Part shown: in pieces, positions 990 to 60,757 of the stretch
How the letters are laid out: every line of letters begins with the position of its first letter
Position numbering within the stretch: position 1 is the first letter of the stretch
Assembly: GCA_038064415.1 (NCBI GenBank)
Contig: JBBTTD010000002.1
Coordinates: forward strand, 8,865 to 72,864
Reading direction: 5' to 3'
Source of the DNA: Patescibacteria group bacterium
GTDB lineage: Bacteria > Patescibacteriota > Minisyncoccia > Phycocordibacterales > PALSA-1337
Length of the DNA stretch: 64,000 nucleotides
The notes under the pieces: model-generated
The model's database searches: none
What the model was told of the DNA's origin: nothing
The model's input: only the letters and a program-made list of their open reading frames with translations
Translations under genes and position numbers: made by a program

Positions 990-3684
990 GACACTTTTTA
1001 TATTTCTTCCCAGATCCGCACGGACACGGATCATTCCTGCCCACTTCCGCTTCTTTTTTAATTAACTGTGAATTATTTGATTCATCACCAGCGCCAATCA
1101 TTTGAGCATTTTCATGAACTTCTTTGAGATTTTTTTGTTCAGAATCAACGGGCATGCCATTTACCATCGGAACTATGTGTGGCAAAACTTTGATCACTTG
1201 CGCCTGCATTGCTCCTTGCATTTCTTTGAAAAGGCGTAAACCTTCTTTTTTATATTCAACTAATGGATCACGCTGGCCGTAAGCGCGTAAATTGACGCTA
1301 GAACGAGTATAATCCATGACTTCTAGGTGTTCCACCCAATACATATCAATGGCTTGCAGAAGCACAATCCTGACCGCATTTAGGAAATCTTCACGACCGA
1401 ATTCGGCGATTTTTTTATTGATAATTGAATTGATGTCGGGCGTGGTTGGTGAAAGCGAATCCGAAGGACGCTTCGGAGCGAGCGAAGGCGAGTGAGAACC
1501 AGACGCGGCGCGAGCACGCACCGACGGCGTGTCCTGAGGAACGCTTTCACCAACCACGTCTGTAAGTTCATTCAACTCTTCTTCTACATCATCAGCATTT
1601 CCAAGTAATAATTTTCGGCGTCGTGAATAAATACTGGTTCGCTGATGGTTGATAACATCATCAAATTCCAAAACATGTTTGCGCGAATCAAAGTTAAATC
1701 CTTCAATTTTTTCTTGAGCGCTTTCCAATGAACGAGAAATTAACTTATGCTCAATCGGAACATCATCAGCCGCGCCAAGTTTGCCCATCATGGTTTTCAA
1801 CATGTCAGAAGCAAAAACACGCATCAAAGTATCTTCAAGCGAGACGAAAAATTGCGTCTCGCCAGGATCACCTTGACGACCCGAACGACCACGCAACTGA
1901 TTGTCAATTCGGCGTGCTTCATGTCTTTCGGTTCCAAGAACAAATAATCCACCTGATTTTTTAATTTCAATATATGTTTCAGAAGTATTTGGGTTTCCGC
2001 CAAGCTTGATGTCCACTCCACGACCCGCCATGTTTGTGGCAATTGTAACCGCGCCCTTTTTACCAGCTTGAGCGATAATTTCACCTTCACGCTCATGGTT
2101 TTTGGCATTGAGCATTTGATGAGGAATACCTTCAGATTTCAAAAATTGCGAAAGTAATTCATTTTTTTCAATGGAGACCGTTCCAATCAATACTGGTTGA
2201 CCCTTGGCGTGAAGTTCTTTGACTTTGCGAGCAACAGCTTTGAATTTACCAAGTTCTGTCTGAAAAATCTGGTCATTACTGTCAATACGAATTTGCATAG
2301 CATTCGTCGGAACGACAAAAACTTCCAACCCATAGACTTTATAAAACTCTTCTGAAGAGGTTGCCGCCGTACCTGTCATTCCAGCTAATTTTGGATACAT
2401 TCTGAAAAAGTTCTGAAATGTAATTGAGGCGTAAGTCCGTGATTCTTGCTGAATACTTACTCCCTCTTTGGCTTCAATCGCCTGATGCAAACCATCAGAC
2501 CAACGACGACCTGGTTGCATGCGTCCAGTAAACTCATCAACAATGACGATTTGATTATCTTTGACAACATATTCTTTATCTTTATTGTACAAAGCTTGGG
2601 CCTTTATGGCGGTCTCCAAATGATGCGCGGATTTGATGCCTCTGTCAGTATAAATATTATCTATTCCCAAAATTTTTTCAGCTTTGGTAATTCCGACTGA
2701 TGTCAGCGAAATTGAGCGATGTTTTTCTTCAACAATGTAGTCTTCATCTTTTTTGAATGATCGGACCATTGCGGCAAACTGTTTGTAGATCGCTTCAGCA
2801 TCACGAGTTGGCGCGGAAATAATTAAAGGCGTTCGGGCTTCGTCAATCAAAATAGAGTCAATTTCATCAACAATCGCGTAGTTTGGTTCACGCTGACGCA
2901 ATTTGTCTGGACTATACTCCAAATTATCTCTCAAATAATCAAAACCAAATTCATTGTTAGTTCCATAGGTAATGTCGGCGGCGTAAGCTTCCCGGCGTGT
3001 ACAAGGTCGCAAAAATTCGTGAACAACTTTGAAAGCGCCGAGTTGGTCGCGTTCAGTATCAAGTTTGTCTTCTTTTGTATCTTTGGGGTTTTGAATTTCT
3101 GGTTTTGAATTTGTCTCGGATTTTGGATTTTGAATTTCAGTCTTATTTTTATGCGCTGGATCATACAAAAATGAAGCCTCATTATTTATCACGGCAACCG
3201 ATAAACCAAGAAAAGAATAGACCTGACCCATCCAGACCGCGTCGCGTCGTGACAAATAGTCGTTTACGGTAACGACATGAATTCCTTTTCCAGTAAGCGC
3301 GTTCAAATATGTCGGTAGAGTCGCCACTAAAGTTTTTCCTTCACCAGTTCTCATCTCTGCGATGGCCCCAGAATTCAAAACCATGCCTCCAAGAAGTTGG
3401 ACATCAAAATGTCTTTGACCCAAGGTCCTGCGCGCCGCCTCACGGACAACAGCGAATGCATCGGGAAGAATCTCATTTAAAATCGCTTCAATTTTTGGAT
3501 CATTGGCTTTCAGATCTAATCTCTTCTTGAATTCATCCGTTTTCGCCCTTAATTGATCATCAGAGAGTGCTTGGATTGTCGCTTCAAGCGCGTTGATTTG
3601 CCCGACAATTGGCTGAAACTGCTTCAAGTTTCGGGTATGTGAATTTCCCTTTAATCTATCCCAAAATGACATAATAAGAGCCAC
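973..3684 (-). CDS. secA: Preprotein translocase ATPase SecA
   Basis: 903 aa. Matches SecA throughout: Walker A (MRTGEGKT), REAYAADITYGTNNEFGFDYLRDN, GRSGRQGDPG, DMYWVEHL, and a C-terminal zinc finger (CPCGSGKKYKKCHG). It carries two unusual insertions (see findings). Confidence 0.95.
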   Translation of the reverse strand: MALIMSFWDRLKGNSHTRNLKQFQPIVGQINALEATIQALSDDQLRAKTDEFKKRLDLKANDPKIEAILNEILPDAFAVVREAARRTLGQRHFDVQLLGGMVLNSGAIAEMRTGEGKTLVATLPTYLNALTGKGIHVVTVNDYLSRRDAVWMGQVYSFLGLSVAVINNEASFLYDPAHKNKTEIQNPKSETNSKPEIQNPKDTKEDKLDTERDQLGAFKVVHEFLRPCTRREAYAADITYGTNNEFGFDYLRDNLEYSPDKLRQREPNYAIVDEIDSILIDEARTPLIISAPTRDAEAIYKQFAAMVRSFKKDEDYIVEEKHRSISLTSVGITKAEKILGIDNIYTDRGIKSAHHLETAIKAQALYNKDKEYVVKDNQIVIVDEFTGRMQPGRRWSDGLHQAIEAKEGVSIQQESRTYASITFQNFFRMYPKLAGMTGTAATSSEEFYKVYGLEVFVVPTNAMQIRIDSNDQIFQTELGKFKAVARKVKELHAKGQPVLIGTVSIEKNELLSQFLKSEGIPHQMLNAKNHEREGEIIAQAGKKGAVTIATNMAGRGVDIKLGGNPNTSETYIEIKKSGGLFVLGTERHEARRIDNQLRGRSGRQGDPGETQFFVSLEDTLMRVFASDMLKTMMGKLGAADDVPIEHKLISRSLESAQEKIEGFNFDSRKHVLEFDDVINHQRTSIYSRRRKLLLGNADDVEEELNELTDVVGESVPQDTPSVRARAASGSHSPSLAPKRPSDSLSPTTPDINSIINKKIAEFGREDFLNAVRIVLLQAIDMYWVEHLEVMDYTRSSVNLRAYGQRDPLVEYKKEGLRLFKEMQGAMQAQVIKVLPHIVPMVNGMPVDSEQKNLKEVHENAQMIGAGDESNNSQLIKKEAEVGRNDPCPCGSGKKYKKCHGQNK
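1441..1558. repeat. GC-rich palindromic element inserted in-frame within secA
   Basis: Perfect 17-bp inverted arms CGTGGTTGGTGAAAGCG (1441-1457) and CGCTTTCACCAACCACG (1542-1558) flank an 84-nt segment of ~65% GC with an inner hairpin CCGAAG-GACG-CTTCGG. It encodes an atypical Ser/Pro/Ala-rich SecA segment (VVGESVPQDTPSVRARAASGSHSPSLAPKRPSDSLSPTTP). Confidence 0.55.
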
Positions 3685-3711
3685 TTTAGCACATTTTGAG
3701 GAATTAAAAAA

Positions 3712-4791
3712 CTAATTAACCCACTCAACTTCACCCTCAATAGCAATCCCAGTTTTTTCTTTTACTCGTCCCATCAAGTTGCGCGCGAAAGCGACAACTT
3801 CTTCTGATGTCGCGCCGGATTTGGAAACTAAGACTAAAGCATGTCTTTCATAAGTCCCGACATTTCCAATAGTCAAACCTTTGGCATCGCAAATTTTATC
3901 CAAGATCCATCCAAGAGAAACTTTAATTCGTCCATCTGGTTCGGAAAAACCGGGAAGATCGGGGTATTTTTTCGTCAGTTCGGCAAACTTATCCATAGAA
4001 ATTATCGGGTTTTTGAAAAAAGATCCAGCTGTTCCCCACTTTTTCCAGTCTGGTAATTTGATTGCGCGGATTTTAATTACAGCTTGCCGTACTTGATCTA
4101 GAGTCGGCATAAGTGGTCGCTGAATATTTGCCATCCGATTGTCCACCCTTTTCAAAAGGTCATTATCTGAAGTCTGGAATTTATCAAAATATACCCGCAA
4201 ATCCTCATACTCAATATTTACGTTCCCGTTTTTGATAAGTCTAAAATCAACTCTAGTGATGATATAACGACCTTTTTGGCGTTTGAAAACACTATCACGA
4301 TATTCAAATTTACAGTCATCATTAGAAAAATCCACAAACTTCATTGTATTGGTGTCAAAAGCATGAACCGTCAAAATAGAACTGGAAACATCACAACCAT
4401 AAGCGCCGATATTTTGAACGGGTGTCGCGCCGACCGTGCCTGGAATTGAAGATAAATTTTCTATGCCATAAAACCCTTGTTTTACAGCATAATCAACAAA
4501 ATCGTCCCAAACTTCACCCGCGCCAACGGAAAGTAGCGAGGAGAGACCTCGCTGATCAATCCCCTTTATTTCCATCTTAATAACTAATCCAGCGAAACCA
4601 TAATCTCCAACTAAAATATTTGAACCACCACCCAACACAAAAATCGCTAACCTTTTACCTTCAGCAAACCGCACCGCTTCAACTAATTCTTCTTCTTTTG
4701 TAACCTGACAAAAAAAGCGGGCTGGGCCGCCTATTTTGAAAGTCGTATAAGACGCAAGTTTTATATTTTCCTCTATTTTAATCATTGTCAT
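3712..4791 (-). CDS. murB: UDP-N-acetylenolpyruvoylglucosamine reductase (MurB)
   Basis: 359 aa. FAD-binding N-terminal region (YTTFKIGGPARFF...VLGGGSNILV) and a MurB C-terminal domain. Confidence 0.85.
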   Translation of the reverse strand: MTMIKIEENIKLASYTTFKIGGPARFFCQVTKEEELVEAVRFAEGKRLAIFVLGGGSNILVGDYGFAGLVIKMEIKGIDQRGLSSLLSVGAGEVWDDFVDYAVKQGFYGIENLSSIPGTVGATPVQNIGAYGCDVSSSILTVHAFDTNTMKFVDFSNDDCKFEYRDSVFKRQKGRYIITRVDFRLIKNGNVNIEYEDLRVYFDKFQTSDNDLLKRVDNRMANIQRPLMPTLDQVRQAVIKIRAIKLPDWKKWGTAGSFFKNPIISMDKFAELTKKYPDLPGFSEPDGRIKVSLGWILDKICDAKGLTIGNVGTYERHALVLVSKSGATSEEVVAFARNLMGRVKEKTGIAIEGEVEWVN

Positions 4792-4913
4792 TATTCTCTT
4801 TGCGCCAAATGATGGCGACGGGTGCGAGCTCCAAATAAAATGTTTAAATTTATGTGAGTACAGCCGTCGCCGTCACTTGGTACAATCTTCCATTAGTATA
4901 TCGTGTCAACCTA

Positions 4914-5069
4914 AAAAAGTGAACAGGGCGTGTGGGTATTTTTCTGAGACGAGTATGCGATTGGTGCGTCAGTCTATTGTATGGCAAGGCAGACATTCTT
5001 GGCAGACCACGAAATTGGAAGACGAATACGCAGTCTCAGAAAAATACCCACACACCCTGTTCACTTTTT
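4914..5069. repeat. Long near-perfect inverted repeat (37-bp arms, 1 mismatch, 82-nt spacer); candidate structured RNA or MITE-like element
   Basis: Arm 4914-4950 (AAAAAGTGAACAGGGCGTGTGGGTATTTTTCTGAGAC) is the reverse complement of 5033-5069 except for one C/A mismatch. It lies in the GC-richer 426-nt gap between two minus-strand genes. A second hairpin (GATGGCGACGG...CCGTCGCCGTC) sits at ~4822-4880. Confidence 0.6.
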
Positions 5070-5217
5070 CCCCATCACGCAAAAGGCCGCCGAGGGCGGC
5101 ACTTTGCGAAACATTTAATATCTGGAAATGCCCACACGAGCACTCACTGAACCAGTGTATCATAATTGGACCTGACAATCAACAGGTTGTCCACAGGTTA
5201 AGGTCAGGCCTCCACAT

Positions 5218-7485
5218 CTATTTCTTCCCTGCCTGTATATCCTTTATGGCAGACTCTATCTGGGTTTTTAGTTCAGGATTGTCTTTCTCCAAGGCACGAA
5301 GTGTTTCTATAGCTGCCCAAGATTGACCGCTAGCATACTGCGTCTGCGCGAGCTTCGCTCTAAGTTGTATATTTGTTTTATCCGCCGCGACTAATTTCTG
5401 ATATATAGCTATAGCTTTGGGATACTCTTTGATGGAGACATACGCTTGAGCTATGCGTTCAGTTTCAAATAATGTCGGATCATCACCAAACAATTTTTTG
5501 GCTTCTGCTTCTTTGTCGTTAAAAATAAGGCCAATTATATAAGCTGACTTAGCTTCTTCAAATGTCGGATCTGATTCGTATGCTTGTTTCAATAAAGCGA
5601 CAGCTTCATCTTTTTTACCGACATTAATATAGACTGTGGCTAATTGAAAAGCTACTGACTGCTTTGCTGGAGTCAATTCGTGGGCCTTTACGAGTAATGG
5701 TTCTGATTGAGCAAACTGTCCAACTGAATTCATGAACGAACCTCCCAGAACATACATACGCGCGTCCTTTGGAGCGATTGCGATTTGCGCTTCAATAACT
5801 TTGTTTGCCAAATCAAAAAATGCTTGCTTCGTGGGACCCGGGTATTGGCCGCTAATAACATTACCGGCGCAAGCAAGCACTTGCTCTCTAGTTTCTTGAT
5901 TGGCCATGTAAGAGTTTATGGAGAATATTTTGTCAAATAGAGTTACATCCGCGCCCAGATTCTTACTATCATTACAAGCGGTAAGAGCTTTGATCAAACC
6001 AGTATTAGCTTGAATTGGTCGCACATTCAGAAAATACAGACTTCCAACTAGAGCAACTAAAACTATTGGAGCAACTATATACTCAACCGCATCGGTGCTG
6101 AAAGTCTTATTTTCCAGCCATACTGAAATTTTTGAGGGTGATTTTTGAGATAAGATTTGACCCCCATTCTTGACAGAAGTAATAGATTTGCGATTTGAGA
6201 TTGAAGAAGAACCCACAAAACCAAGAATAGCAAAGAAGAAAACATAACTCGCGAGGTTATCAAACACGAAAATATTGTGTATCGCATATCCAGCAATCAG
6301 TCCGGTCAAAACACTTTTTTGCGCGATGCTCAATTGTGATCGTCTCCAGATTGCAATCAGAGCCAGTACATATAAAGCAAGATATGCGATCAGACCGACG
6401 AAACCTGAAGCTACCAGCCAATCTAGAAAAACGCTGTGGGCGCGGTCAAACCATTGTTCTTGAGCCCACATCTCTGGCTCATAGTTCGCGTTAAAGATAT
6501 AGTTGAAATTCTCTTGCCCCCAACCGAAAATTGGGCGTTCTAGGGCACCAGAAATGGCCATTGGCCAAATGTAGCCTCGAGCTTGAGTCTTGGTATCATT
6601 CCAAGAAATTGTGGCTAGACGATTCAATACTTCGTTGTCTTGAATAAAAGTAGAGGTACGATTCATCCAGAAAACTACACCAATCAGTATGATCACAACT
6701 ATTACACTCCCTGAAATCCAGCGAGATTTTTTTAATTCGCCTCTGCCAAAAATTGCGTATAAAGCCAAAGACAACATAATACCACCAATCAAACCAAGAG
6801 CAGTACCACGAGTCTGGGTTTCAAAGATAATAAAACCAAATAATACAGCTAGAATCGGATATACCCATTGCAAAAATCCCGAATTAATTATTTGTTTTAC
6901 TCTTGCGACAAAGGACATGTACACCGCAATACCAATATGCATCAACATATAGACAGCCATGTATGCGGCGTTGCCGAGGGAGGCGTCAATACGGGTACTA
7001 CCCTGGTGAACAGTCGCATTACCAGTCAATTGTAGTATGCCATAAATTGAGATAACAAAAGCAATGACTAAAGAAAAATTAAACCAGCGGTGCCACATTC
7101 TTTTTCCTTCTTCTCCAAAACCAAACAAATGTGTAGCAGTCATGTAAAACATCCAGAGGTGAATCACAACCAACCATCCTTCCATTCGTTCAAAGTTTGA
7201 TACGATACTACGGATTGAGTTGACTCCTAATAGGTCAGCAACTAAAGCAATCAAAGCAAATAAACTCACGCCAATCGTAAGTGCCGTAAATTTTGGTCGA
7301 TACTTTGCATCAAGAAAAGCTAAAATAATCCAACTGGCAAAGGCTAGTTCTACTAGAATACGGAAATAAAACGCTTTACCTGTGATAAATGGAAAAAAGT
7401 ATGAATTGGCAACAATTAGTGGAAAGATTGGGATTAGAAAAATGGCAACTATCGAAATTGAGCGTAAGATTTTCTGAAGATTCAT
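5218..7485 (-). CDS. O-antigen ligase/polymerase-like polytopic membrane protein with C-terminal TPR repeats
   Basis: 755 aa. About 10-12 TM helices in the N-terminal two-thirds (Wzy/WaaL-like O-antigen ligase domain architecture). The C-terminal ~250 aa is TPR-like repeats (AQAYVSIKEYPKAIAIYQKLV...). Confidence 0.6.
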   Translation of the reverse strand: MNLQKILRSISIVAIFLIPIFPLIVANSYFFPFITGKAFYFRILVELAFASWIILAFLDAKYRPKFTALTIGVSLFALIALVADLLGVNSIRSIVSNFERMEGWLVVIHLWMFYMTATHLFGFGEEGKRMWHRWFNFSLVIAFVISIYGILQLTGNATVHQGSTRIDASLGNAAYMAVYMLMHIGIAVYMSFVARVKQIINSGFLQWVYPILAVLFGFIIFETQTRGTALGLIGGIMLSLALYAIFGRGELKKSRWISGSVIVVIILIGVVFWMNRTSTFIQDNEVLNRLATISWNDTKTQARGYIWPMAISGALERPIFGWGQENFNYIFNANYEPEMWAQEQWFDRAHSVFLDWLVASGFVGLIAYLALYVLALIAIWRRSQLSIAQKSVLTGLIAGYAIHNIFVFDNLASYVFFFAILGFVGSSSISNRKSITSVKNGGQILSQKSPSKISVWLENKTFSTDAVEYIVAPIVLVALVGSLYFLNVRPIQANTGLIKALTACNDSKNLGADVTLFDKIFSINSYMANQETREQVLACAGNVISGQYPGPTKQAFFDLANKVIEAQIAIAPKDARMYVLGGSFMNSVGQFAQSEPLLVKAHELTPAKQSVAFQLATVYINVGKKDEAVALLKQAYESDPTFEEAKSAYIIGLIFNDKEAEAKKLFGDDPTLFETERIAQAYVSIKEYPKAIAIYQKLVAADKTNIQLRAKLAQTQYASGQSWAAIETLRALEKDNPELKTQIESAIKDIQAGKK

Positions 7486-7594
7486 AGATGTTTATAATCA
7501 AATATTATTAAAGAAGTACAGCTTAATATAGCATGTAGATTTGTAAAATACCATTGTCATGAAAGATTGGCGCTAAAATTTAACTTGACACTAC

Positions 7595-19536: not shown

Positions 19537-21348
19537 ATGCACAAGCATGAGATTTTTTCTGAGCGGAATGATCCGGTATTGCTGAAGAAAATAACTCGAA
19601 AAATAAGGGGCCTTTTTTCTGGACCATGTGAGCGTATTCTCCTCATAAACATACCACAGGTAGCCGAAGCAGATTTCGATCTTCCCACAGCCAAACTTGC
19701 TCGGTACCCTTGTTTCCCTCCTTGTGGTGCGGGCTTGCTATCACGCGATTTACGAGATGTGGGATATCAGACTAAACTTCTTGATCTGAACTTCGAGATA
19801 CTCTCTCGAGTAAAAGAGTCGGATTTCCATTATAATCTGTGGCAAAATTCAGTAGATCAAGTGATCAAAATTTTTGTCCCGAATCTGATTGGAATAAGTT
19901 GTATGTTTTCCATGACGCACGCTTCAATGCGGGCAGTTGTAGATTATATAAAAAGACACCATCCTCATATACCAATCATAGCTGGAGGTGTACATGTATC
20001 CGGTAATGCAGCGATGGTCTTGAATGAGATTAAAGGAGTAGATCTTGCTCTCCGTTATGAAGCAGATATTGCCTTAGTCACAGTAGTTGATTTTATAAAT
20101 GGCAAGACAACAGAAAATCAACTGACTCAAATAGCGACATCAGTAGAAGGAGAATATCTAGAAATAACGGAAAGAAGCATTCCAGACGGTAATAAAGTAA
20201 ATTATTCTCCAGAATACGATGACCTGCCAATCGGTAATTACAGTTTAACTGGAAGTATCGGTGCTTATCATTGGCTTCGTACTGATCATCCGCCCGTAGG
20301 CACCATCCTTGCAAATAGAGGGTGTAGGGCTGCTTGCACTTTCTGTTCTGTCCATAGTTTTAATGGCGCGGGAGTCCGAAGTAGGACTGCAACTACTGTA
20401 GTAGATGAAATGGAGAGAATGGTCCAAAAATATGGCATCAAGCATTTTATGTGGCTTGATGACGACCTTTTTAGACCAGACTCTGCGGTGGAACTCTTTC
20501 CTGAAATCACTAGGAGAAGACTGGGTATAACATGGGATGCTTCAAACGGCGTGATTGCAAGAGCTTCTACTCCAGAAATGATACATGCGGCTTCGGAATC
20601 CGGATGTATCGGTCTGAGTTTTGGAATAGAATCTGGCAATCCAAAAATACTGAGGGACGTAAAAAAACCCAGTACCGTTGAACATTTCAAAGATGTAAGT
20701 CAAACTCTGAAAAACTATCCAAGAATGTTTTCCAAGGGTTTCCTAATGGTAGGATTTCCTGACGAAAACATCGGTCAAATTCGAGACACTGTAAATCTTG
20801 CTGTAGACATGGCTCTGGATTGGTATCCTATCCAAATTCTTTCCCCTTTTGGTGGGACAATAATGGCAAAGGCACTAGTCAAGAAAGGAGTAGTGGACGA
20901 ACATTCAGTCCTATCTTCAAATATGTTTGTCGGTGTTACCGGCAAGCAGAGAGTGAAGGAAAGACTTGAAACTACCTCTAGCGTCTTTAATCACGAAATT
21001 CTGGATGCTGATCAAGATCAGATGCGTGTTCCATCTAAGGAAGAAATGGCGGATATCTGGTTCCTTATGGATTACAGAGTCAACTACGAGCAGATTCCAA
21101 ACCAGATCAATCCAATCAAATTGGCTATGAAACGCCTCATGCTTCGTGATGTTCGGGACAGAGTCCCTAAACATATTCCAATGGCAAGTCTCTTCCTTGG
21201 GATCATTAACCAAAAGCTTGGTAATCATGAAGAAGCTAAAGAAAACTTCATGGAGACAGAGCAATATCTTAAGGAATCAGTCTTTTGGCAAGTGCGTTTT
21301 AAGAAGCTTGGCTTAATCAATCTTCTCAGAAAACTTAGCAATGACTAG
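19537..21348 (+). CDS. B12-binding domain radical SAM protein (class B radical SAM family)
   Basis: N-terminal cobalamin-binding-like domain, then the CxxxCxxC cluster motif CRAACTFC at ~aa 265, and a long C-terminal extension. Confidence 0.8.
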   Translation: MHKHEIFSERNDPVLLKKITRKIRGLFSGPCERILLINIPQVAEADFDLPTAKLARYPCFPPCGAGLLSRDLRDVGYQTKLLDLNFEILSRVKESDFHYNLWQNSVDQVIKIFVPNLIGISCMFSMTHASMRAVVDYIKRHHPHIPIIAGGVHVSGNAAMVLNEIKGVDLALRYEADIALVTVVDFINGKTTENQLTQIATSVEGEYLEITERSIPDGNKVNYSPEYDDLPIGNYSLTGSIGAYHWLRTDHPPVGTILANRGCRAACTFCSVHSFNGAGVRSRTATTVVDEMERMVQKYGIKHFMWLDDDLFRPDSAVELFPEITRRRLGITWDASNGVIARASTPEMIHAASESGCIGLSFGIESGNPKILRDVKKPSTVEHFKDVSQTLKNYPRMFSKGFLMVGFPDENIGQIRDTVNLAVDMALDWYPIQILSPFGGTIMAKALVKKGVVDEHSVLSSNMFVGVTGKQRVKERLETTSSVFNHEILDADQDQMRVPSKEEMADIWFLMDYRVNYEQIPNQINPIKLAMKRLMLRDVRDRVPKHIPMASLFLGIINQKLGNHEEAKENFMETEQYLKESVFWQVRFKKLGLINLLRKLSND

Positions 21349-49806: not shown

Positions 49807-49859
49807 AAATGTACATTACTACTGTTAAGACAGAAAGACAATGACTGCTCTATATTATA

Positions 49860-49961
49860 CGAGGTATGGTACATGAATTTCATAGGAGTTGTGCTGTATC
49901 ATCAACGAAAGTAATGTGATGGAACAACACAATTCCTATGAAATTCATGTACCATACCTCG
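49860..49961. repeat. Long inverted repeat (34-bp arms, one G-U position, 34-nt loop) in a divergent intergenic region
   Basis: Arm CGAGGTATGGTACATGAATTTCATAGGAGTTGTG (49860-49893) pairs with CACAATTCCTATGAAATTCATGTACCATACCTCG (49928-49961). One position pairs only as G-U, which hints at RNA-level structure. Confidence 0.6.
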
Positions 49962-50008
49962 TATTAAGATGCTTGCGTACTTTCATTCTACAGATTAGAC
50001 TGTTTTGC

Positions 50009-53040: not shown

Positions 53041-53197
53041 GGAAGCATGGAATAGTTTGTATTTTTATTGCCGAGGACTGTTTGAACGACTATAAATTGC
53101 TTGATAAAATGCGAATGACGTTTCTAGAGTATTTTATCAAGCAATTTAAGAAGTGAGTTCCGCAGGCACATAAAAATACAAACTATTCCATGCTTCC
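53041..53197 (+). ncRNA. Candidate structured RNA / palindromic element, copy A (nested perfect inverted repeats plus conserved blocks shared with copy B)
   Basis: Outer 28-bp perfect arms at 53041-53068 and 53170-53197. Inner 16-bp perfect arms at 53095-53110 and 53131-53146. Conserved blocks TGCCGAGGACTGTTTGAACGACTA, GCGAATGACG and GAGTTCCGCAGGCAC are shared with 60570-60735 (opposite strand), with compensatory changes in the inner stem. Confidence 0.45.
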
Positions 53198-55170: not shown

Positions 55171-56634
55171 ATGACAAAAAATTCTGTTCAAAAAATACCC
55201 GCGCACCTCCACATCATCGGCATCTGCGGTGTCGCTACTAGTGCCTTGGCAATTGCTTTTCACAAGAAGGGCGTAAAAGTGACCGGAAGCGATAAGGGAT
55301 TTTTTCCTCCAGTTTCAATTGAATTAGAGAAACAAAAAATTGAGTTCTACGCTGGTTGGCATCCAGAAAAGATGGTCGCGAATGGTAGACCGGATACTAT
55401 TATAATCGGCGGTGGCGGAACTAGTCCTTCAAATCCCGAAATTATTTACGCCAAAGAACATAACATTTCTGTTTATTCATACGCGGAAATTCTACAAAAA
55501 TATTTCATCAAAAAAAATTCAATCGTTGTGACAGGAACCTGGGGAAAAACAACCATTTCCGCCATGCTTTCATTCGTTCTTTTGAGAGCCAAAATGGATC
55601 CAAGTTATTTTACCGGCGGACTTTCACTTTCTCATGATACCGGCGCGTTGTCCGATTCAAATTGGAGTGTGGTTGAAGGCGATGAATATCAAGTTTCAAT
55701 TTCTGATCATAGACCAAAATTTGTCTACTATTCCCCTACTTATCTAATTTTGACTTCAGTGTCTTGGGATCATGCTGATTTATATCCAACAGAAAAGGCA
55801 TATTTTGATGAATTCAGAAATTTAGTCAATAAAATTCCAGAAAATGGAAAAATCGTTGCTTGTATTGATAATGATGGAGTGAAAAAAATTATTGGAGACA
55901 AATTAGAATCTGGCGAAAGAATCATTACTTATGGAAAAACTGCCGGTACAAATTATCAATATGATTCAGTCATTCCGACAAAAAATGGCTTGGATTTCAT
56001 AATTGAATCAGCGCGGGGTAGACCAGCGCACGCGTCATTCAAGATTCACTCGCCAATGCTCGGTCGCTTCAATGCTGAAAATATCACCGCAGTATTCGCT
56101 ATGGCTAGTGAAGTTGGGATCAAACCGGAAAAAATAATCAAAGCTATTGCTGAATTCAAAGGAATAAAACGCCGATTTGAGAAACGGTTTGAAGGTGAAA
56201 TAACCGTCATGGATTGTCACGCTCCAACTCCCGAAAAAGCAGCATCGGTGTTGGAAAATATCAAAGAAGTATATAAAAATAAAATAATCGCGGTTTATGA
56301 ACCGAATATCGGCGGACGACAAAGAAGTTCCGCAGGAATGTATGATGGCGCCTTTAAAGATGCTGATATCGTGATTGTCCCGCGATTAACAAAACTAAAG
56401 ATTGAGCGAGGTCCGACCTCGCTAGCGAGGTCCGACCTCGCTCAAAAACCTCTGGAGGGCGATGAATTGGCGCGAATTATTGGTAAAACACACACCAATG
56501 TCCACTATTTAGCAAATGATGAGGATCTAGTCACATTTTTGAAGTCAGAAGCAAAAAGAGGTGATATGATCGCCTTTCTCGGCTCACATGGCTTCAGGGG
56601 AATGATTGAGGAGACAGTAAAAAAATTCCAATAA
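55171..56634 (+). CDS. Mur ligase family: UDP-N-acetylmuramate--L-alanine ligase (MurC) or Mpl-type ligase
   Basis: N-terminus HIIGICGVATSALAIAF...VTGSD is MurC/Mpl-type. P-loop VVTGTWGKTT. The C-terminal domain carries the inserted palindrome. Confidence 0.75.
   Translation: MTKNSVQKIPAHLHIIGICGVATSALAIAFHKKGVKVTGSDKGFFPPVSIELEKQKIEFYAGWHPEKMVANGRPDTIIIGGGGTSPSNPEIIYAKEHNISVYSYAEILQKYFIKKNSIVVTGTWGKTTISAMLSFVLLRAKMDPSYFTGGLSLSHDTGALSDSNWSVVEGDEYQVSISDHRPKFVYYSPTYLILTSVSWDHADLYPTEKAYFDEFRNLVNKIPENGKIVACIDNDGVKKIIGDKLESGERIITYGKTAGTNYQYDSVIPTKNGLDFIIESARGRPAHASFKIHSPMLGRFNAENITAVFAMASEVGIKPEKIIKAIAEFKGIKRRFEKRFEGEITVMDCHAPTPEKAASVLENIKEVYKNKIIAVYEPNIGGRQRSSAGMYDGAFKDADIVIVPRLTKLKIERGPTSLARSDLAQKPLEGDELARIIGKTHTNVHYLANDEDLVTFLKSEAKRGDMIAFLGSHGFRGMIEETVKKFQ
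56402..56445. repeat. 44-bp GC-rich near-perfect palindrome (tandem 20-bp units) inserted in-frame in the Mur ligase gene
   Basis: TTGAGCGAGGTCCGACCTCGCTAGCGAGGTCCGACCTCGCTCAA matches its own reverse complement at 42 of 44 positions. ~60% GC against a ~35% background. It encodes ERGPTSLARSDLAQ. Confidence 0.6.
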
Positions 56635-57801: not shown

Positions 57802-57809
57802 CAGTGAGA

Positions 57810-57921
57810 AACAAAGCAAGAAGCGGGTGTGAATTTTATGAAAGACTGCAATCTCTTTGCGTGGAACGCGAGACAATTATAACGGTCTTTCATAAAATTC
57901 ACACCCGCTTCTTGCTTTGTT
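57810..57921. repeat. 37-bp perfect inverted repeat (38-nt loop) exactly between convergent stop codons; candidate bidirectional terminator or structured element
   Basis: Arm 57810-57846 (AACAAAGCAAGAAGCGGGTGTGAATTTTATGAAAGAC) is the perfect reverse complement of 57885-57921. It is flanked by the PALP gene stop at 57799-57801 and the murD stop at 57930. Confidence 0.6.
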
Positions 57922-57929
57922 ACTATTTC

Positions 57930-60521: not shown

Positions 60522-60569
60522 GAAAACAATTATAACATAGTGAGAGAAAAATCAAGAAAAAGAAACCTG

Positions 60570-60735
60570 ACAAGGTATGCATTTTTATGTGCCTGCGGAA
60601 CTCGCTCCTGAAATTTCTAGGTAAAAGGCTCAGGAATTACTCAAATCTTCGACTTGGTAATTCCAACGCCATTCGCCTTTTACCAAGAAATTTCTAGTCG
60701 CTCAAACAGTCCTCGGCAATAAAAATGCATACCTT
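60570..60735 (-). ncRNA. Candidate structured RNA / palindromic element, copy B (opposite strand to copy A)
   Basis: Outer 18-bp perfect arms at 60570-60587 and 60718-60735. Inner 19-bp arms have one mismatch. An extra internal hairpin GGAATTAC...GTAATTCC is present. In minus orientation it shares TGCCGAGGACTGTTTGAGCGACTA, CGAATGGCG and GAGTTCCGCAGGCAC with copy A. Confidence 0.45.
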
Positions 60736-60757
60736 GCCGAGTTTCTTTAGCTTTTTA

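Follow-up and report, generated by a model that had tools for sequence, protein, structure and literature searches.

The gap upstream of murB in this Patescibacteria genome contains a 156-bp palindromic element, referred to here as T, which we interpret with moderate confidence as an orphan foldback insertion of MITE-like type, sitting in a spacer that is permissive and has been colonised repeatedly; the searches described below found no second copy, target-site duplication or transposase. T is real, non-coding and lineage-restricted. It is located between two conserved small transcription units, a small RNA gene (A) and a murB leader hairpin (B), neither of which was recognised in the original prediction. 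Throughout, the window denotes the whole 64-kb (64,000-nt) stretch of DNA that was analysed. The features of the locus are:

3712..4791, minus strand: murB, with FAD_binding_4 and MurB_C domains; secA is the next gene
4798..4887, minus strand: hairpin B, ~90 nt, directly 5' of murB and with its own promoter
4895..4923, minus strand: promoter-like site of B/murB (-35 TTCACT, 17-nt spacer, -10 TATACT)
4914..4950, no strand assigned: left arm of T, 37 nt (the 3' arm on the minus strand)
4951..5032, no strand assigned: interior of T, 82 nt, partly self-complementary
5033..5069, no strand assigned: right arm of T, starting 8 nt past the end of the A terminator stem
5078..5147, minus strand: small RNA gene A, placed by a profile of six relatives, alignment, terminator scan, covariation and fold
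5218..7485, minus strand: gene upstream of murB (wzy), encoding a Wzy_C (O-antigen ligase-like) and TPR protein according to its Pfam domains

The arms of T lie 82 nt apart and pair at 36 of 37 positions (97% complementary), confirming the coordinates predicted for an inverted repeat with one mismatch. This single mismatch is C/A on the plus strand and becomes a G.U wobble on the minus strand. The arm sequence occurs at only two sites in the window, and no match was obtained in 100 shuffles. Predicted RNA folds are strong for both the plus strand (-79.2 kcal/mol, z -9.9) and the minus strand (-79.5 kcal/mol, z -9.6), as is the fold of the DNA (-49.8 kcal/mol, z -12.6). Because the interior is itself partly self-complementary, the entire element is rod-like, and the whole of T folds to one long rod. 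A TACAAT box is found within the interior (4981-4976, minus strand), while the stem is bordered by A5 on one side and T6 on the other (a U6 tract on the minus strand). Of the features by which MITEs are defined, T has terminal inverted repeats, a small size and no coding capacity and lacks a target-site duplication; its membership of that class is not established.

The gap that contains T (4792-5217, 426 nt) runs, as originally described, from the stop of the O-antigen-ligase-like gene to the start of murB, with both flanking genes on the minus strand. Its GC content of 0.462 exceeds the background, as had been claimed, compared with 0.375 for the window and 0.351 for other gaps. It had further been described as the largest intergenic region. 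A rough ORF map contains no bigger gene-free gap, and as its two larger gap entries contain small called genes, the description is plausible but not rigorously demonstrated. The open reading frame across the gap (4877..5326) had been judged implausible as a protein, and indeed it is not one: there is no Pfam match, the sole relative returned by a search against 5.8 billion proteins is the counterpart of this spurious ORF in a sister strain, and a no-index search of 1.84 billion representatives with the T-spanning 68-aa part (4877-5080) again yielded that sister-strain call only. The relatives of MurB itself fall in Patescibacteria (Parcubacteria/Paceibacteria-like), the next-best MurB matches being 58-63% identical.

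The sequence upstream of murB was compared across about 40 Patescibacteria loci, nine taken from representative genomes and 31 recovered by scanning metagenomes for the hairpin core. A second hairpin had been proposed at ~4822-4880; it exists, with arms at 4800-4824 and 4861-4885 that are 80% complementary (-36.7 kcal/mol, z -6.5), and it is the conserved RNA of the gap, B. Wherever enough sequence is present, B is found directly 5' of murB in these loci, and in the window the ribosome-binding region immediately follows it. In the B stem pairing reaches 90%, and three pairs carry changes in both partners. Further compensated changes were seen by eye in locus L007, where A and B have been inverted together as one block. 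The -10 box of B lies 7-8 nt ahead of GAUUGYACC in the relatives compared, and in the window TATACT is positioned about 7 nt before GAUUGUACC. The corresponding -35-like TTCACT (4923-4918) is located inside the left arm of T.

The small RNA A is ~68 nt long and consists of a 5' hairpin and, after it, a terminator whose long stem-loop is conserved (CGCAAAG-nGCCGCC-CUC-GGCGGCn-CUUUUGCG). Its extended -10 box, TGATACACT (hexamer at 5159-5154), lies just upstream and precedes GUGAGUAC by 6-7 nt. When six relatives, and not the window itself, were used to build a profile, it matched A of the window with an E value of 1.8e-13. In the alignment of relatives, the A terminator shows 99.7% pairing, with five pairs changed on both sides. 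Neither A nor B matches a family in Rfam, and a literature search for a murB sRNA returned nothing relevant.

The apical ~40 nt of B are complementary to A in two blocks, pairing A 5' GUGAGUAC with B GUACUCAC and A CUCCAAA..AUGUCU with B AGACAU..UUUGGAG. The A/B pair was followed in the window together with L001-L008 and L039-L069. Two position pairs covary between the genes, the first being G:C in 26 cases and A:U in 4, and the second C:G in 22 and U:A in 10, with no discordant case for either. The variant present in the window is AUGUUU:AAACAU, and other single changes in A or B yield G.U wobbles. Predicted A:B duplexes range from -16 to -18 kcal/mol (z about -2.8), and pairing across the two variant classes weakens the duplex by 2.2 kcal/mol. 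Each covarying pair may represent a single evolutionary event, and instead of selection for A:B pairing, gene conversion between the two neighbouring complementary segments could be responsible. From these sequence comparisons, A and B are a candidate for trans-acting sRNA control of murB-secA, and so of peptidoglycan synthesis, in CPR bacteria.

T starts 8 nt past the A terminator stem and ends 13 nt before the B -10 box, and it thus fills the terminator-to-promoter spacer. This spacer is the hypervariable part of a locus that is otherwise highly conserved (wzy - sRNA A - leader B - murB - secA). It measures 39 nt in L069, 44 in L006, 46 in L051, 66 in L064 and 72 in L060, and T is missing from it in every other species-level relative compared. 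Unrelated long hairpins occupy the A-B spacer of other loci, with a 46-bp stem in L039, a 168-nt rod in L048/L056, a 22-bp stem in L050 and a 19-bp stem in L043; in L046 a long hairpin is found between B and murB instead. None of these hairpins is similar to T in sequence. The occurrence of different hairpins in the same spacer of several genomes suggests that the gap has been colonised repeatedly and independently.

Among close strains T is invariant. Groundwater from Hainich has yielded several assemblies of the same genome; one contig (L036; 14.2 kb fetched) shows 100% identity with the window and the others about 98.9%, and all of these strains (98.9-100%) carry T unchanged. The gap is 100% identical in four loci (L031-L034, from ENA and Logan assemblies), and the other four hairpins of the window are likewise invariant between strains. 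As strain divergence is patchy, with long zero-difference stretches, the identity of the gap is uninformative on constraint. A comparison of the window with the 98.9%-identical sister strain (L031) gives 52 mismatches at 3500-4000 (the 3' end of murB) and 35 at 7000-7500, with multi-kb difference-free stretches between the tracts. Such clustering (3697-3997 and 7000-7500) suggests recombination tracts.

About 83 kb of this genome contains six long hairpins including T (~one per 14 kb), all of them intergenic. Those other than T, together with related elements from other genomes, are:

49857-49964: E49, 48-nt arms, 92% complementary, between divergent genes; an orphan
53041-53197: E53, intergenic; E60 family
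57807-57924: E57, 40-nt arms with 1 mismatch, 6 nt from the stops of two convergent genes; an orphan
60554-60753: E60, intergenic; E60 family
L031:20227-20422: L031c, third E60-family copy, just outside the window
L048:1459-1626: E60-family element of another genome, at the same A-B site as T
L050:906-989: L050 element, with a reduced E60 core (by eye only)

E60, E53 and L031c constitute a dispersed family with three copies in this genome. Identity in their interiors is about 90%. The outer and inner stems differ in sequence between copies yet remain paired, 10 of 38 pairs having both partners changed, and the core helix does not vary. Family members are 84-200 nt long and have an invariant internal-loop core (5' CCUGCGGAACUCGC, 3' GCUCAAACAGUCCUCGG). 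A motif scan for this core between variable stems (5' CCUGCGGAACUCGC with 3' GUCCUCGG) recovered only E60, E53, L031c and L048/L056. The family is undescribed: it has no Rfam match, no target-site duplication and no transposase nearby, and a literature search for MITEs or hairpin ncRNAs of Patescibacteria returned nothing relevant. No consistent target-site duplication was found among E53, E57, E60 and L031c. These four elements start within a few nt of a gene stop codon or overlap it. The lack of a consistent orientation of the elements relative to flanking transcription fits a DNA-level element. Scanning a further 10 kb of the contig revealed no new element.

Many unrelated long near-perfect intergenic hairpins, with arms of 19-48 nt, occur in related Patescibacteria (L039:154-272, L043:666-712, L046:2367-2485, L048:4082-4189, L059:1390-1573, L069:5771-5932 and L001:7599-7774). 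Several of them lie in A-B or B-murB spacers, and each is an orphan within the small samples available. Two Logan short-read contigs, L037 and L038, end inside E60 (window 60620) and E57 (57892), and the palindromes of these elements appear to break assemblies. A palindromic core, AGGTC(C/G/T)GACCT, recurs within larger hairpins at window 56402-56445, at L031:17765-17805 and just past the A terminator in L003; the first of these is a 44-nt palindrome made of two tandem GCGAGGTCCGACCTCGC units. Another palindromic unit, TGTCATTCCCGCGAAGGCGGGAATCCAG, is repeated in L029/L030:846-937, L040:687-778 and L043:2479-2564, and spans very different organisms, a Rhizobiaceae MAG as well as Patescibacteria contigs. 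The E60-family profile gave a weak match (E 0.022) to CTGCGGTGGAACTCTTTCCTGAAATCAC at window 20483-20516 (plus strand), within a radical-SAM gene (19537..21348), which is probably due to chance. Past the 3' end of the window and near a contig end, an ORF for a LAGLIDADG homing endonuclease (L035:813-1391) may lie inside an rRNA intron; rRNA introns with such endonucleases are common in CPR bacteria.

The original prediction had proposed that the arms be searched for genomic copies. No second copy of T was found in the window plus about 19 kb of extra sequence, a total of ~83 kb that corresponds to about 8% of a roughly 1-Mb genome. Exact scans with words from the arms (a 32-mer and a 21-mer) gave 0 matches across GTDB representative genomes, JGI/ENA metagenome contigs and IMG/VR, the genome of this species being apparently absent from the representative set scanned. 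BLASTN against phages and plasmids found no copy, and searches of protein databases with ORF-derived peptides led to the same locus only. At neither plausible boundary of T is there a target-site duplication (plus-strand flanks ...CAACCTA and CCCCATC...), and no transposase or site-specific recombinase is encoded in the 64-kb window or its flanks.

We also asked how T relates to the other hairpins. The E60 family shares both the genome and the rod architecture with T, its L048 copy sits at the A-B site that T occupies, and the purine-rich arms are similar, with ...GGTRTG..ATTTTTnTG..CTGCG at the junction of arm and interior. In contrast to the family, T is without the core (5' CCUGCGGAACUCGC, 3' GCUCAAACAGUCCUCGG). 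An nhmmer profile of the family did not match T, its covariance model reached 13.1 bits (E 0.91) on the opposite strand, a level expected of generic hairpins, and a leave-one-out arm profile did not recover T. Assignment of T to the E60 family was rejected on these grounds and retained only as a possible distant relationship. When the arm and junction of T (47 nt) were compared by anchored alignment, z scores of 5.9, 6.9 and 3.8 were obtained for E57, E60 and E53, respectively, and of below 1 for the control hairpins E49, L039 and L046. Three of the six best matches in a window-wide scan with the T arm are the arms of E57, E60 and E53, with scores equal to background maxima. By sequence resemblance T is therefore a probable, albeit unproven, distant relative of the E57/E60/E53 hairpins, and in practice an orphan. 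A derivation of T from sRNA A was likewise considered and rejected: a 12/13-nt match (GTGTGGGTATTT vs GTGTGGGCATTT) is within chance, and the A profile matches nothing in T.

Several known classes of bacterial repeat offer a comparison. The Correia elements of Neisseria (CREE/NEMIS) are intergenic, non-coding and about 100-155 bp in length, and their long terminal inverted repeats form hairpins; they often lie beside genes, where they donate promoter elements, terminate transcription or act as RNase III substrates. They number in the hundreds, nearly identical to one another, and carry a TA duplication and conserved terminal inverted repeats of 26 bp. T resembles them in being intergenic and non-coding with long terminal inverted repeats that fold as a hairpin, and differs in being single-copy in the data examined, with no target-site duplication and no shared sequence. 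The enterobacterial ERIC/IRU and REP/BIME repeats and the pneumococcal RUP/BOX repeats are imperfect palindromes in transcribed or intergenic DNA, usually with no known mobility genes nearby, and affect mRNA stability and termination. These are defined by a conserved consensus and a high copy number within a genome, whereas the perfect stem of T is far longer, at 37 bp, and no copies of T were found. The MITE-like candidacy originally put forward for T is the best fit to the absence of T from the relatives' spacer, the presence of other hairpins there and the dispersed family in the same genome, although the copies, target-site duplications and transposase expected of such an element were not found.

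A different possibility is that T never moved and belongs to no family, the local palindrome having arisen when a template switch during replication duplicated one side of the spacer as its reverse complement, and having been perfected by further switches. Template switching is documented to create perfect stems and to maintain their perfection (PMC8794818). The orphan status of T in every search and the lack of a target-site duplication are in line with such an origin, as is the spacer of L045, the nearest other relative and the one with the most similar A and B sequences. L045 is without a hairpin and has in common with the window the block CC.TGTTCACTTTTTT...TTGACACG.TATACT (z 5.3). The shared block comprises the last 13-15 nt of the promoter-side arm of T and the B promoter; the outer part of one arm thus equals native promoter sequence of a hairpin-less locus. 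Either a T-like element was ancestral and has decayed in L045, except for the end retained as the -35, or the palindrome of the window grew into native promoter sequence. Without any selection on RNA, template switching would provide a mechanism for either history and could likewise explain the compensated changes in the stems of E60-family members. Homology of the left arm of T to the L045 spacer was tested and rejected, as the alignment is not significant and the rest of the spacers is unalignable; L045 is too diverged to provide an exact empty site. A purely local origin has to contend with the fact that E57, E60 and E53 have arms resembling the T arm and junction at equivalent positions, with the occupation of the same site in L048 by a clearly dispersed family, and with a remaining L045 spacer that does not align to T. 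We consider it unlikely.

T could alternatively be a hairpin selected as RNA or DNA, acting as a backstop bidirectional terminator or insulator, or as an RNase III site, that parts wzy/A from B-murB-secA. Read in the direction of the flanking genes, the sole mismatch forms a G.U wobble; the stem is bordered by A5 and T6; strong hairpins occur independently at the same spot in several lineages; and the placement of E57, E60, E53 and L031c at or within a few nt of stop codons would suit such a function. However, the wobble is a single observation, and the many relatives with hairpin-less spacers of 39-72 nt indicate that a hairpin is not required. The position of T after a canonical terminator and before the next promoter implies that little transcription is expected, and for the same reason the RNase III-processed UTR that had been suggested is unlikely. 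Intrinsic terminators typically have stems of 5-15 bp and loops of 3-8 nt. T is similar to intrinsic bidirectional terminators in that a stem-loop is placed between an A-tract and a T-tract and between transcription units, but its 37-bp stem far exceeds the needs of termination, its interior is 82 nt, and it directly follows a conventional terminator. With a stem and loop so far outside the usual range, a terminator scan makes no call at T itself; it does call the A terminator 8 nt upstream. Overall, we regard selection for a hairpin function as improbable.

We consider it very improbable that T is an independent structured sRNA gene, with the arms forming a processing stem around the 82-nt interior. 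The strong fold and the interior TACAAT box speak for such a gene, but no Rfam family matches T, the element is conserved only among near-identical strains, a promoter in the interior would transcribe one arm only, and T has no terminator of its own. In the Rfam scan that the original prediction had called for, no family reached its gathering threshold: the best matches of T in Rfam 15 are plant and animal miRNA hairpin models, at 31 bits versus thresholds of 82-500, and the whole window yields one tRNA only. The proposal of a structured ncRNA is not supported in the case of the 37-bp repeat, given also its location between a terminator and the next promoter. An invertible promoter switch, with the 82-bp interior flipping between the 37-bp repeats, is hardly credible: inverted repeats do surround a short segment with a -10-like box upstream of an essential operon, but one orientation only is seen in all independent assemblies fetched and no recombinase gene lies within the 64-kb window, so that neither hallmark of an inverton (both orientations and a site-specific recombinase) was observed, and the interior is hairpin-like, as in foldback repeats.

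Under the preferred reading of T as a foldback insertion, we infer that it was mobile and entered the short, unstable spacer between the A terminator and the B promoter as rod-like foldback DNA. It would probably be a diverged member of the heterogeneous long-hairpin repeats of this genome, which include E57 and E60/E53/L031c. The near-perfect arms would most likely be kept so by template switching or conversion within the element, as opposed to selection on an RNA. The promoter-proximal end of T is predicted to supply the -35 hexamer, TTCACT, of the B/murB promoter. The 37-bp stem with its A5 and T6 borders would also block read-through from wzy/A in either direction, which would insulate the B/murB promoter, and T may in this way serve as a backstop terminator.

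A broader interpretation, which we put forward as speculative and doubtful, is that the long hairpins (T, E57, the E60 family and those of L039, L048, L050 and L043) are undescribed Patescibacterial modules that keep their pairing and not their sequence, either as insulators, RNase III sites or protein sites that tune A/B control, or through hairpin-targeted spread that leaves no target-site duplication. If so, the pairing of the E60 family would surround an invariant internal-loop core, and hairpins would have been recruited repeatedly to the stretch that separates the sRNA A terminator from the promoter of leader B. T alone is a modest finding, one more palindromic intergenic insertion. Taken with its neighbours, it indicates that the reduced genomes of Patescibacteria still hold dense long-hairpin repeats, at about one per 14 kb here, and that such repeats yield spurious ORF calls (P0121, for example) and appear to break assemblies. 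At the murB locus, T marks a hypervariable spacer within a conserved arrangement of genes, and would provide part of the promoter of leader B.
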